Part shown: positions 38,094 through 46,447 of the stretch, piece by piece
Layout: each line of letters begins with the position of its first letter
Numbering within the stretch: the stretch's first letter is position 1
Assembly: GCA_942491995.1 (NCBI GenBank)
Contig: CALOCX010000003.1
Location: forward strand, 139,710 to 203,709
DNA: 64,000 nucleotides
DNA from: an uncultured Gammaproteobacteria bacterium
Lineage (GTDB): Bacteria; Pseudomonadota; Gammaproteobacteria; UBA9214
Direction: 5' to 3'
Notes under the pieces: generated by a model
Databases searched by the model: none
What the model was told of the DNA's origin: nothing
What the model saw: only the letters and a program-made list of their open reading frames with translations
Position numbers and translations under genes: made by a program

Positions 38094-38140
38094 ACTCTCT
38101 GCGTTCTCTGTGTCCCCGTGGTGAATAGCCACATTGTTAT
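38094..38140. repeat. Family-2 repeat, single arm (GTGGTGAATAG core)
   Basis: CTCTCTGCGTTCTCTGTGTCCCCGTGGTGAATAGCCACATTGTTATT. Matches 43756-43795 and the reverse complement of 46401-46447. Confidence 0.65.
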
Positions 38141-38428
38141 TACTTTAACAGGGCAACCTGGACAGCCTTGTTCCTGAAGCCAGGCTTCGCTACCCTTCTC
38201 TGCCATGGAGAATCTGCTGGCATGTCTCGCACGACGGTTGAACAGGCAAGAAAGTTCTGACTTTTCTGGACCGGGATTGATCCTGATCAATACGGATATT
38301 CGTTATCTGTCGTCCAATACGGGGTTATACGGATGGCTCCCTAATGTAGTATCAGGTGAGTCGTGCGGGCACGCCCGAATATGACAAACGTGTTACCACG
38401 TAACTACACATCACCAGGGAGCTGATGT

Positions 38429-40237
38429 ATGAAAGATGATGAAATTATCAAGGCGATAATTGCATCTGCCGGCACCTCGCATGAACGCGCGCGGCGACAT
38501 TTGCTGCAGTATTTATGCCAGATACAGCAACGGCTGTCGTATATTCCCGCAGACGCGATCACACAACTGGCGGGCCTGACGCAGCTGCCCGAATCAGAAA
38601 TTCACGGCGTCATCGAATTCTATTCATTCCTGCACAAACACCCGCGCGGCGACTACGACATCCTGCTCAGCGACAGTATCACCGATCACATGCTCGGCTC
38701 CCGCAAGCTGTTGCAACTGCTCTGTACCCGACTTGGCGTGGAACCCGGCGTACCGCGAAGCGATGGCCGGGTCACGGTGGACACCACCTCCTGCACCGGG
38801 CTTTGCGACCAGGGACCCGCACTGCTGGTCAATGGCTATGCCGTCAGCCGACTCGGCGACCACCGTATCGAGCAGATCTGCCAGCTCATCGAGACAGCAA
38901 CCGGGATCTCGCAATGGCCGGCCGAATTCTTCGTCATCGAAGACAATATCCGGCGGCGCGATCTGCTGCTCGGGGATGAAACCACGGCCGCCAGTCCCGA
39001 CGGCAGTGCGTTGCGTGCCCTGATTGAAAACGGCAGCGATACCCTGCTCGATGCCATCGAAAAATCCGGCCTGCGCGGCCGCGGTGGCGCGGGCTTCCGC
39101 ACCGGCATGAAGTGGCGTTTCTGCAAGCAGGCCGAGGCCGACAGCCATTATGTCGTGTGCAATGCGGATGAAGGCGAACCCGGCACCTTCAAGGACCGGG
39201 TATTGCTGAACAGCTACGCCGACAGTGTCTTCGAGGGCATGACCCTGTGTGCCGGCATCATCGGCGCGCAGCAGGGCTATCTCTACCTGCGCGGTGAATA
39301 CCGCTACCTGATCGAACCACTGCAAGCCATACTGCAACAACGTCGCAACAACGGCCTGCTCGGGCAAGGCATACTCGGCAAGGACGGTTTCGACTTCGAC
39401 ATTGACATTCACCTCGGTGCCGGCGCCTATATCTGCGGCGAGGAGTCCTCGCTGATCGAATCACTGGAAGGCAAGCGCGGCATTCCGCGCAAACGTCCAC
39501 CCTTTCCGGTGACGCACGGCTACCTGAACAAGCCGACCGTGGTCAACAATGTCGAAACCTTCATGGCCACCGCCAAAATCGCGGCGCTGGGTGCCGACTG
39601 GTTTTGTAGTGCCGGCACACCCGAGTCCACCGGCACCAAGCTGCTCAGCATCAGCGGTGACTGCGAACAACCCGGCATCTACGAGTACCCGTTTGGCGTG
39701 ACCATCAAACAGGTGCTCGAAGACTGTGGTGCTGCAAACACCCAGGCGGTGCAGATTGCGGGCGCCGCGGGTACCACCCTGCCGGTGTCGGATGCGGAAC
39801 GCCGTATCGCGTTCGAGGATGTCGCTACCGGCGGCTCGTTCATGGTGTTCAACAAGGAGCGCAACCTGCTCGACATGGTGCAGAACTTCGCGCATTTCTT
39901 CGTGCACGAAAGCTGCGGATTCTGCACACCCTGCCGTGTCGGCGGCTCACTGCTGAAAGACCTGGTCGAAAAGCTCGTCAACGGTCATGCAACGCAGTAC
40001 GATGTCGCCGAGATGAAACAGATCGGCGCCCTCATGAAACGTACCAGCTTCTGCGGCCTTGGCACGACCGCCGCAAACCCGGTACTCGATCTGCTTGACC
40101 ACTTCCCGCAACTGGTCGAAAGCAGGCTGGCCCACAGCGGCTACGAGCCGGCATTCGATCTCGACGCCGCCCTGCAGGACGCGCGGGATATCACCGGGCG
40201 CGATGACGCCGGCGCACACATCGAGGCCAACACATGA
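38429..40237 (+). CDS. hoxF: NAD-reducing [NiFe] hydrogenase diaphorase subunit HoxF (NuoE-like + NuoF-like fusion)
   Basis: 602 aa with GLRGRGGAGFRTGMKWRF (FMN/NADH site) and ESCGFCTPCRVG (4Fe-4S). N-terminal thioredoxin-like [2Fe-2S] part. RBS CAGGGAGC. Confidence 0.9.
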   Translation: MKDDEIIKAIIASAGTSHERARRHLLQYLCQIQQRLSYIPADAITQLAGLTQLPESEIHGVIEFYSFLHKHPRGDYDILLSDSITDHMLGSRKLLQLLCTRLGVEPGVPRSDGRVTVDTTSCTGLCDQGPALLVNGYAVSRLGDHRIEQICQLIETATGISQWPAEFFVIEDNIRRRDLLLGDETTAASPDGSALRALIENGSDTLLDAIEKSGLRGRGGAGFRTGMKWRFCKQAEADSHYVVCNADEGEPGTFKDRVLLNSYADSVFEGMTLCAGIIGAQQGYLYLRGEYRYLIEPLQAILQQRRNNGLLGQGILGKDGFDFDIDIHLGAGAYICGEESSLIESLEGKRGIPRKRPPFPVTHGYLNKPTVVNNVETFMATAKIAALGADWFCSAGTPESTGTKLLSISGDCEQPGIYEYPFGVTIKQVLEDCGAANTQAVQIAGAAGTTLPVSDAERRIAFEDVATGGSFMVFNKERNLLDMVQNFAHFFVHESCGFCTPCRVGGSLLKDLVEKLVNGHATQYDVAEMKQIGALMKRTSFCGLGTTAANPVLDLLDHFPQLVESRLAHSGYEPAFDLDAALQDARDITGRDDAGAHIEANT

Positions 40238-40974
40238 GCGACACGAAAACATTCAGCCTCGACGGCGTTGACATTGAATTCAGCGACGGCGATACCATCA
40301 TGGATGCCGCACTGCGGGCCGGCGCCTATATACCGCACCTCTGCCATAATCCCGAATTCACACCGCATGGCAGCTGCCGTGTGTGCGTCGTCGAGGTTAA
40401 TGGCCGCCAGGTATCTGCCTGTACCCAGCCCGCGGCCGAGGGACTCGTGGTAGACAACGGCTCCGATGCCATTGTCGAGGAGCGGCGCAACCTGCTGCAG
40501 ATGCTGTTCGTCGAGGGCAATCATGTCTGCCCCGGCTGTGAAAAAAGCGGCGCCTGCCAGCTGCAGGCAGTGGCCTATTACACCGGTATGCTGTCGCCCC
40601 ACTATACCCATTTTTTCCCGCAACGCTCCGTGGATGCCTCGCACCCGGATACCGCCATCGACTTCAACCGCTGTATCCTCTGCGAACTGTGCGTACGGGC
40701 CAGCCGCGACGTCGACCACAAGAACGTGTTCTCGCTCGGTGGCCGCGGCATTGGCAGTCACCTGACGGTTAACTCGCCCAGCGGCAAACTCGGTGACAGC
40801 AGCTTTGCCGCCACCGACAAGGCCGCCCATGTCTGTCCGGTCGGTGCGATCCTGCCCAAGCACCGCGGTTACGAGCAGCCCATCGGCAATCGTCTCTATG
40901 ACAGGCAACCGATCAACATCGTCGGCGATGTCGCGGCATACGAACCCGGCAACAAGGGAGACAGGCATGGCTGA
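40234..40974 (+). CDS. hoxU: NAD-reducing hydrogenase diaphorase subunit HoxU ([2Fe-2S]/[4Fe-4S], NuoG-N-terminal-like)
   Basis: MSDTKTFSLDGVDIEFSDGDTIMDAALRAGAYIPHLCHNPEFTPHGSCRVCVVEV... plus CPGCEKSGAC and CILCELC clusters. ATGA overlap with hoxF. Confidence 0.88.
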   Translation: MSDTKTFSLDGVDIEFSDGDTIMDAALRAGAYIPHLCHNPEFTPHGSCRVCVVEVNGRQVSACTQPAAEGLVVDNGSDAIVEERRNLLQMLFVEGNHVCPGCEKSGACQLQAVAYYTGMLSPHYTHFFPQRSVDASHPDTAIDFNRCILCELCVRASRDVDHKNVFSLGGRGIGSHLTVNSPSGKLGDSSFAATDKAAHVCPVGAILPKHRGYEQPIGNRLYDRQPINIVGDVAAYEPGNKGDRHG

Positions 40975-41506
40975 GAAAATCAGGGTCGCAACGGCTTCAT
41001 TGTGCGGCTGCTTCGGCTGTCACATGTCGCTGCTGGATATCGACGAACGCATTATAGAGCTGGTGCAGCTGGTGGAATTCGACCGTTCGCCGATCACTGA
41101 CATCAAGAAGGTCGGTGATTGCGACATCGGCATCATCGAGGGCGGTGTCGCCAATGCGGAGAATGTCGAGGTACTGCTCGAATTCCGCAAACACTGCAAG
41201 GTGCTGGTGGCACTGGGCGCCTGTGCGGTGAATGGCGGCATACCGGCCATGCGCAATTCATTCGAGCTAAGGGAATGTCTTGAGGAAGCCTATATCGACG
41301 GCATCGGCGTGGCCAACCCGCAGATACCGAGCGACGTGGAGATCCCGATGCTGCTGAACAAGGTGCACCCGATTCACGAGGTGGTCAAGGTTGATCATTT
41401 CCTCCCCGGTTGCCCGCCATCGGGCGATACCATCTGGACTTTCCTGACGGAAGTGATCGAAGGCAAGCCGATCAGCTTCCCCTACGAACAGATCCATTAT
41501 GATTAA
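40967..41506 (+). CDS. hoxY: [NiFe] hydrogenase small subunit HoxY
   Basis: MAEKIRVATASLCGCFGCHMSLLDIDE...ALGACAVNGGIPAM...LPGCPPS. Start ATG 40967 (RBS AAGGGAGA) overlapping the hoxU stop; track ORF is extended upstream. Confidence 0.88.
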   Translation: MAEKIRVATASLCGCFGCHMSLLDIDERIIELVQLVEFDRSPITDIKKVGDCDIGIIEGGVANAENVEVLLEFRKHCKVLVALGACAVNGGIPAMRNSFELRECLEEAYIDGIGVANPQIPSDVEIPMLLNKVHPIHEVVKVDHFLPGCPPSGDTIWTFLTEVIEGKPISFPYEQIHYD

Positions 41507-45793: not shown

Positions 45794-45869
45794 TTTGCTG
45801 TAACGAATGCGCTTGAATGTGAATCCGGCATTCTGATTACAGCGACCGGCCGGCTAGCGCCGGGGAGGC

Positions 45870-46376
45870 TTACTGCAACCCTTCTTCGGGATATTCCGGA
45901 AGGTTGGTAATACTGGCATCGATACCGTTGTTGCTCGCCTTCACCTGGAACTTGATATTTTTTACCCGCTTGAAGTTCACGGCAAATTCACCGGCATTGG
46001 TTTCATTCAGCGAAATCACGTAATGGTGACTGCCATTATAGTCAAGGCTCCTGAAGTACCAGTGTCGTACATGCAGGTTGTGATCGTTATCAACGCCTTC
46101 GTAAAACAAGCATTCGACATTTTTACCCGTACCGATAGTCAGTAACTCGGTTCTTGGCAAGCCCTTGAACTGCGAGGGAGTCTCGAGCGGAAATTCCCCT
46201 GAACAGATGAACGCACCGCCCAAAGGAACCCGGGCATTTTCCTCTATGATCGTGGTGTAATACTCATCTGTGTTGTAATAATATTTCGAGTCAGCGGCCT
46301 GTGCAGTTGTTGTGCACGCGGCTGACATCACAAGGCAAAGCCGGCACAGGCAGCTGAACATGCGTGATTTCTTCAT
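45870..46376 (-). CDS. Secreted protein (168 aa), hypothetical
   Basis: Signal peptide MKKSRMFSCLCRLCLVMSAACTTTAQA, Tyr/Asn-rich mature part, low-GC codon usage. Directly downstream of soxA on the same strand. Confidence 0.5.
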   Translation of the reverse strand: MKKSRMFSCLCRLCLVMSAACTTTAQAADSKYYYNTDEYYTTIIEENARVPLGGAFICSGEFPLETPSQFKGLPRTELLTIGTGKNVECLFYEGVDNDHNLHVRHWYFRSLDYNGSHHYVISLNETNAGEFAVNFKRVKNIKFQVKASNNGIDASITNLPEYPEEGLQ

Positions 46377-46400
46377 GGTGATGTCTCCGTAAAACCCGGT

Positions 46401-46447
46401 TAATTCATTATGTAACTATTCATCAAAGAGACACAGAGAACACACTA
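46401..46447. repeat. Family-2 repeat, single arm, reverse orientation
   Basis: Reverse complement reads GTGTGTTCTCTGTGTCTCTTTGATGAATAGTTACATAATGAATTA. Sits between the soxA stop and the start of the 168-aa gene. Confidence 0.6.

Follow-up and report, generated by a model that had tools for sequence, protein, structure and literature searches.

The 64,000-nucleotide stretch of contig CALOCX010000003.1 analysed here (the window), from an uncultured gammaproteobacterium, carries three copies of a short repeat, A, B and C, in the spacers of a hydrogenase and sulfur-oxidation gene region. A P-type ATPase gene (35314-38010, minus strand) is followed by the hydrogenase operon hoxF, hoxU, hoxY, hoxH and hoxW (38429-43705, plus strand), a PAP2 phosphatase gene (43831-44532, minus strand), small open reading frames (ORFs) without Pfam matches, an ORF of 168 aa (45870-46376, minus strand), soxA (46445-47224, minus strand), and a cytochrome c gene (47221-47700, minus strand). 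Copy A is situated in the divergent spacer between the ATPase gene and hoxF, copy B between the convergent genes hoxW and PAP2, and copy C between soxA and the 168-aa ORF. These repeats very probably represent three independent, old insertions of an element of the MITE type (miniature inverted-repeat transposable element) with ends of the IS66 family (ISBst12 group), which have since decayed. The feature is real and ordinary in kind, the only unusual thread being the recurrence of its arm core across phyla.

The presence of the repeats is not in doubt. A degenerate arm consensus matches the window at 38100-38128 (plus strand, one mismatch), 43757-43785 (plus strand, no mismatch), and 46416-46444 (minus strand, two mismatches), and the chance matches in 100 dinucleotide-preserving shuffles numbered zero. 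Profile hidden Markov models (HMMs), made separately for left and right ends from independent family members, recognise the same places with E-values of 4.6e-11 (left end of B), 1.3e-9 (right end of B), 4.8e-7 (A, right end) and 1.2e-5 (C, right end), and no further copy below E = 1 in the 64 kb; the window thus holds three sites with four arms, where none is expected by chance. Site B is a genuine, if imperfect, palindrome, its exact ends being GTAACTATTCA (43716-43726) and TGAATAGTTAC (43779-43789), and folds at -33.7 kcal/mol on the plus strand and -36.0 kcal/mol on the minus strand (z = -4.7 and -4.4, respectively). Sites A and C fold no better than shuffles and therefore are single arms, not hairpins. 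The consensus matches, the shuffles, and the end models agree with the original prediction, made from the sequence alone, which had placed single arms at 38094-38140 and 46401-46447 and a full imperfect palindrome at 43714-43795; the limits of the latter are now refined to 43716-43789 (74 bp), and the distances given from the repeats to hoxF, hoxW, soxA and the 168-aa ORF were correct on recheck. The clustering of the three copies in 8.4 kb of the 64 kb is only marginally unusual (roughly p = 0.05 by our own estimate), and fits a preference for AT-rich intergenic DNA, which that stretch offers.

Copy B (43716-43789, plus strand) is a complete mini-MITE with both termini, consisting of a left arm with its terminal inverted repeat (TIR) (43716-43753, plus strand; GTAACTATTCAGCGCACCACAGGGACACGGAGCACACC) and a right arm with its TIR (43757-43789, plus strand; TGTGTTCTCTCTGCCTCCGTGGTGAATAGTTAC). 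Its target-site duplications are CATTCGTT on the left (43708-43715), beginning 2 nt past the hoxW stop codon, and CATTTGTA on the right (43790-43797); they are identical at 6 of 8 positions, a level that random flank pairs reach or exceed in about 3% of cases. Aligned with MITEs of about 170 nt from marine-sediment metagenomes, B corresponds to their first ~40 nt and last ~36 nt, the central ~95 nt being missing, and is thus an internal-deletion derivative. Copy A (38078-38132, plus strand) is a truncated remnant of about 55 nt without a left end, lying 296 nt upstream of the hoxF ATG: some 22 nt of element interior (38078-38099, plus strand), similar to the CTTATTCAAAGTACACAC segment of the ~170-nt subfamily, precede a right-end arm (38100-38132, plus strand) with the mutated terminus GAATAGCCAC at 38132. 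Copy C (46412-46444, minus strand) is a solo right-end arm, TGTGTTCTCTGTGTCTCTTTGATGAATAGTTAC in the minus-strand reading, with the terminus GTTAC at 46412; its start adjoins the stop codon of soxA (46445-46447), its end lies 35 nt upstream of the 168-aa ORF's ATG, and in alignment with the ~170-nt MITEs it retains the right arm only. In the window, the left end reads GTAACTATTCAGCG... and the right end GTAACTATTCACC..., both in the inward direction.

The same kind of ends recurs widely outside the window. In related metagenomic genomes, the ends GTAACTATTCAGCNCACCAC… and …CTCTGTGGTGAATAGWTAC bound non-coding elements of 150-340 nt. A scan with the arm pattern (which included TGAATAG), using one genome per species, returned 77 loci, with about 0.5 expected by chance (own estimate); about 30 came from one Chromatiales metagenome-assembled genome (MAG). 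There, the arm always forms the right end of a non-coding element of about 318-340 nt, with the left end GTAACT(A/G)TTCAGCTCACCACAGAG... (also given as GTAACT(A/G)TTCAGCTCACCACAGAGACACGGAGGCACAGAGAA) and the right end ...CTCTGTGGTGAATAGATAC, and these elements are flanked by perfect 8-bp direct repeats that are different in each copy. Scanning metagenomes with the left terminus yielded at least 120 loci, most of those listed being MITEs of 150-320 nt with several interior types. Over all loci, 44 of the 102 pairs of 8-bp flanks match at eight of eight positions and 17 of 102 at seven, against 0.56 and 0.37 expected under shuffled pairing; elements were counted once per strand in this test, so that the perfect matches amount to about 22 distinct duplications. 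The duplicated targets are 73% A+T. Such a fixed 8-bp duplication is the signature of a DDE transposon with an 8-bp stagger. Matches to both termini in viral contigs numbered 0 and 1. Copy B and its 150-340-nt relatives are small, non-coding, intergenic, and bounded by TIRs, and the family as a whole carries target duplications of fixed length, as do the bacterial MITEs already described (Correia/NEMIS, RUP, MITEAba12; reviewed in PMC10969869), with which it also shares many copies, presence or absence between relatives, and hairpin folding; it differs from them in its parent family, IS66/ISBst12.

This parentage follows from the termini and from autonomous elements with the same ends. Inverted repeats of the IS66 family begin with GTAAGCG and give 8-bp direct repeats (PMC11946415), and ISDge4 of Deinococcus geothermalis, an experimentally active single-ORF member of the ISBst12 group in the IS66 family, carries GTAACTGCTCAGCA / GTGACTACTCAGCA as its TIRs and a direct repeat of 8 bp (PMC12898284). 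The ends of the MITE family read GTAACTATTCAGC, thus starting with 5'-GTAA, and come with direct repeats of the same length. Metagenomic locus L110 contains a complete insertion sequence (IS) of 1,640 bp (126-1765; ends GTAACTATTCAGCACC / GTAACTATTCAGCTCACCAC) whose one ORF, of 471 aa, matches Pfam DDE_Tnp_IS66 at 2e-43; a second IS, in L198 (638-2349), encodes a transposase 38% identical to the L110 protein. Searched against plasmids with tblastn, the L110 protein matched transposases annotated as members of the IS66 family, among others in Deinococcus, Bacillus, Geobacillus and Nostoc. ISGst1 of Geobacillus plasmid pGS18 has the ends GTAACTATTCAGCC / GTAACTATTCACCC and the perfect duplication AAAAGAAC, an IS on a Nostoc plasmid has the end GTAACTGCCCAGG and the duplication ATTTTACG, and an Oceanisphaera IS has the end GTAACTATTCAGCTT. 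The ISBst12-group elements ISGst1, ISDge4, L110 and L198 carry the same terminal sequence as the window copies (GTAACTATTCAGC / GTAACTATTCACC), the 8-bp target duplication is common to the group and the MITE family, and the asymmetry of ISGst1 between a "CAGC" end and a "CACC" end is matched by the ends in the window. The two kinds of element differ in that the ISs measure 1.6-1.7 kb and have one ORF, whereas the window copies, at most 74 bp long, encode nothing and possess, inside their termini, an arm of CTCYGTG repeats that the autonomous ISs lack. More than 20 contigs share one identical locus, ttaagatattGTAACTATTCAGCACACCACCCACCGTATAATTATGTC (L089, L094, L112, L114, L115, L118, L124-L126, L133, L136, L139, L144, L153, L158, L163, L169, L170, L182, L186, L190, L201); their record names, where listed, are mostly those of human-gut metagenome assemblies, and the locus represents a fixed ISBst12-type terminus at a single site, the host probably being a common gut bacterium.

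The history of the three copies can be read from relatives, which were found through HoxW homologues and then compared in gene order. Copy B is identical in eight contigs of the same species from different samples. It also is present in L209/L210 (95% in HoxW), where A and C are not covered. In L211/L212 (86%), A is absent and B present, and C is present in L211, its site not being covered in L212. In L213/L214 (84%), B is absent, the site of A is not covered, and the downstream gene order differs at C. In L215/L216 (82%), A is absent from L216 (not covered in L215), B from both, and C from L215 (not covered in L216). Accordingly, B extends to the relatives at 95% and 86%, C is shared with the one at 86%, A is confined to the lineage of the window, and none is found at 82-84%. 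Orthologous empty sites thus exist for all three copies, and that of B is exact: the hoxW-PAP2 spacer, 125 nt long in the window, is reduced to 43 nt in L213 and L215, the difference forming one clean alignment gap of 82 nt, and the same shortening at the position of B is seen in L213, L214 and L215, 82 nt being the 74-bp element plus one 8-bp duplication. At the junction of soxA and the 168-aa ORF, the sequence of L215 is unrelated, L211 shows 76 nt followed by the arm, and the arm of the window directly adjoins the stop codon. Between the ATPase gene and hoxF, L211 equals L216 with about 24 nt of unrelated sequence, compared to the ~55-nt remnant in the window.

The gene order itself is older than the repeats. 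L215/L216 keep the whole succession of ATPase, hoxFUYHW, PAP2, small ORFs, 168-aa ORF and soxA with none of the three copies, and L213/L214 keep hox-PAP2 without B. Because relatives with the full order lack the copies, and because the 86% relative lacks A, the insertions are independent of one another and younger than the gene order; by these comparisons A, B and C are separate insertions of different ages into a pre-existing arrangement, A and C apparently having been truncated later. Mutated termini in relatives (GAAACT in L209 and GTTTC in L211) are as expected of inactive copies, and the decay of both termini and arms between relatives proceeds at a roughly neutral pace.

Three further differences between these loci were noted. 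The 76 nt between the soxA stop codon and arm C in L211 (10254-10325, minus strand) contain CCAGGTGGAATAGACGAC, which looks like a second terminus of the right type, degenerate and oriented alike, and perhaps represents the remnant of a nested or tandem insertion. In L215 (8131-9934), a PhoU_div-PHO4 phosphate-transporter pair lies between ORFs of 77 aa and 169 aa, at the place corresponding to about 45.8 kb in the window; it is absent from the window and from L211, and constitutes an indel inside the low-GC stretch between PAP2 and soxA that is unrelated to the repeats. After an ORF of 106 aa, the gene order of L213/L214 is wholly different (V_ATPase_I, DUF1538, P-II).

In the mechanism that we propose, a DDE transposase encoded elsewhere would bind termini of the GTAACTATTCAGC type and insert the element where AT-rich intergenic DNA is cut with an 8-bp stagger, the repair of which then creates the 8-bp duplication. 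Copy B is an internally deleted element of 74 bp that retained both ends; A and C would have lost their left parts by later deletions. A transposase of the ISBst12 type presumably moved these particular copies, all three of which would now be immobile fossils, and any present effect likely is only incidental, such as a stable hairpin in the 3' region of hoxW.

Several observations weigh against this interpretation. The duplication around B is imperfect, and A and C have neither a second end nor a recognisable duplication; that both once were full insertions, from which parts were then deleted, is suggested by the alignments with relatives. The original prediction had proposed a search for a cognate recombinase, and with tblastn no IS66-type transposase gene was found in the 64-kb window or in the loci of the closest relatives. 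A regular-expression search for the IS66 motif CWAHARR gave no match, only host genes and no transposase lay between distant arm pairs of the first 77 loci (e.g., L017), and none of the autonomous elements with the same ends comes from the genome of the window. The IS copies in L110 and L198 lack matching 8-bp flanks (L110:118-125 / 1766-1773; L198:630-637 / 2350-2357), unlike the MITEs, ISGst1 and the Nostoc IS, and may be recombinant copies or insertions into other repeats. Lastly, the CTCYGTG repeats are absent from the autonomous ISs and widespread without GTAAC termini, and the arm core may have a history or function of its own.

The hydrogenase operon and the region of sox and small ORFs were accordingly not delivered by these repeats, which are later and independent hitch-hikers. 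The family also documents MITEs that use the ends of single-ORF IS66 elements (ISBst12 group), a group whose transposition was observed experimentally only recently; in the searchable literature we found no description of MITEs with IS66/ISBst12 parentage. Both the 74-bp mini-element with its two ends and the elements of about 170 nt offer clean natural substrates for defining what the transposase requires.

The inner part of the arm deserves separate consideration, as its recurrence across phyla is the only part of these findings that could exceed the ordinary. It is composed of three 9-mers NNCTCYGTG followed by GTGAA (consensus TTCTCTGTGTTCTCTGTGCCTCTGTGGTGAA), and has been found in at least 10 phyla, among them Acidobacteriota, Planctomycetota, Chloroflexota, Bacteroidota, Cyanobacteria, Fibrobacterota, and delta-, alpha- and gammaproteobacteria, with isolates represented by Lacimicrobium, Bacteroides finegoldii, and Nostoc/Anabaena plasmids. 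Among bacterial MITE clusters, 97% stay within one genus (bioRxiv 10.1101/2024.01.18.576219), whereas this core crosses phyla. Part of the signal, but not all of it, is explained by the strongly conserved terminus of the ISBst12 group, as TGAATAG was in the search pattern. Sorted by the sequence after GGTGA, 98 of 161 arms have no ISBst12-like terminus, and the spread over phyla therefore cannot be attributed simply to that IS group. Besides the ISBst12-like one, another terminus, GGTGAA(T)AGCTTTT(T)AAAG, recurs in one gammaproteobacterial and one deltaproteobacterial MAG, and around arm pairs of other phyla, whose outer limits are not fixed, target duplications did not exceed the control except with GTAAC-type ends. 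The core also is found in tandem arrays (periods of about 46 nt and about 135 nt) and in units of A-tract, hairpin and T-tract (examples among L001-L079 are L045:3558-3791, L017:6997-7404, L052, L069, L079:2870-3035 and L078:3000-3030). Literature searches with the arm sequence strings returned no relevant paper, only coincidences with primers. It is conceivable, although we hold it to be rather doubtful, that the core is a separate hairpin-forming module, found in at least 10 phyla with at least two kinds of termini or none, and serving either as the recognition array of a hitherto unrecognised and very promiscuous mobile system or as a functional structure captured by ISBst12-type ends in the lineage of the window. 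Were the latter true, the structure might be a mobile terminator, a hairpin acting on RNA stability, or an array to which a conserved host factor binds. A likeness to SPRITE is one of form only: many arms outside the window, in their A-tract, long hairpin and T-tract, are like mobile bidirectional terminators, but the window copies lack the T-tract and there is no relation in sequence.

The original prediction had alternatively suggested recognition sites for a shared regulator. Such a cis-regulatory role, in which the arms would act as operators for one DNA-binding protein, or else as a terminator or RNA hairpin in the joint control of hox, sox and the genes of the low-GC stretch, perhaps as an exapted mobile element, seems to us improbable. 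Some positions invite it, with C lying so close upstream of an ATG, A in the upstream region of hoxF, and B forming a hairpin of -34 kcal/mol just past hoxW, and in other genomes many arms either have the A-tract/hairpin/T-tract form or stand directly before a ribosome-binding site. Against it, relatives with the same genes lack the copies at the orthologous positions, the orthologous promoters included, and the positions of the copies themselves are unlike one another (A lies upstream of hoxF by about 300 nt, B downstream of hoxW, and C 35 nt before an ATG). No T-run follows B, the sole hit to an intrinsic terminator is a marginal 5-bp stem inside A, and promoter and terminator signals around the three copies are not above shuffles. 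Nor is there a preference for gene starts, as of 103 arms, 57 have their outward side towards a 3' end and 46 towards a 5' end. The nearly neutral decay described above also speaks against such a role, as do the searches of Rfam 15, in which the window gave no match at gathering score, and B and a Bacteroides copy, examined at E <= 10, gave only generic hairpin (miRNA) noise at E >= 2. For hox, a conserved perfect FNR-type box is the better putative regulator site.

That box belongs to a pair of perfect FNR/CRP-type palindromes in the window, at 38277-38290 and 44571-44584, with 0.04 expected from shuffles. The first, TTGATCCTGATCAA, precedes the hoxF ATG by 139 nt and is conserved in the relatives L211, L215 and L216; the second, TTGATCTCGATCAA, occupies the spacer that separates PAP2 from a divergent ORF of 101 aa and is conserved in L211. 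As judged from sequence, these putative boxes are better candidates for shared regulation than the repeats.

The other proposal in the original prediction, that the repeats mark the boundaries of acquired segments, is very improbable. By this account they would be the ends or recombination scars of two composite transposons or islands, one with hoxFUYHW (38.4-43.7 kb) and another with the low-GC islet (44.6-46.4 kb), and the three sites indeed bracket both blocks in their cluster of 8.4 kb; the islet moreover is of lower GC (0.45-0.53). However, copy A (38132) and the left end of B (43716) have their outer termini turned to the hox operon, and the right end of B (43789) and C (46412) have theirs turned to the islet, so that both blocks lie outside the elements and are not composite cargo enclosed by their inner sides. 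Neither is such cargo missing where the ends are missing: L215/L216 retain both blocks without any copy, and L213/L214 retain hox-PAP2 with the exact empty site. The unequal ages of the copies, and the GC content of the hox operon (0.57-0.63), which equals that of its flanks, also argue against acquisition between the repeats.

That the repeats are REP (repetitive extragenic palindromic) or REPIN elements, spread by a RAYT (REP-associated tyrosine transposase; Y1, IS200-like) as is the window's other repeat family, is barely credible: they are short, intergenic and partly palindromic, like the GTAG-tagged repeats of that system (PMC3733652), and a true GTAG-type family co-occurs in the window, but the single arm has no internal palindrome and does not fold on itself, no GTAG or CGTC tag marks a 20-40-nt imperfect palindrome, the full elements have 8-bp target duplications where HUH/Y1 transposition makes none, and the termini are identical to IS66-family inverted repeats. 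Of the "MITE/REP family" originally suggested, the first half consequently stands, by virtue of the IS66-type GTAAC termini and the 8-bp duplications, and the second is given up.

Other candidates were set aside as well. CRISPR repeats, integron attC sites, Tn7/Tn3 ends, a hammerhead core (CUGAUGA), DnaA boxes and a Tus-Ter site were dropped upon inspection of the sequence. The flank and end of B together read GTTGTAACTA, but this is a product of the duplication and is not seen at the other copies.

The GTAG-tagged repeat of the window, GCAGGAGCGCCGTCCCCGGCGCGATT, is separate from the arm family, unrelated to it, and much more abundant, and represents an ordinary REP family. Its palindrome, (T)GTAGGAGCGCCGTCCCCGGCGCGATT, is the repeat that the original prediction had counted as the first family. 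Copies lie at 4014-4216, 17472-17562, 21533-21642, 29604-29697, 43156-43194, 48542-48583 and 51392-51550, arranged as singles, as inverted pairs, and as a threefold tandem with a period of 36 nt (21533-21642), one copy being situated between hoxH and hoxW.

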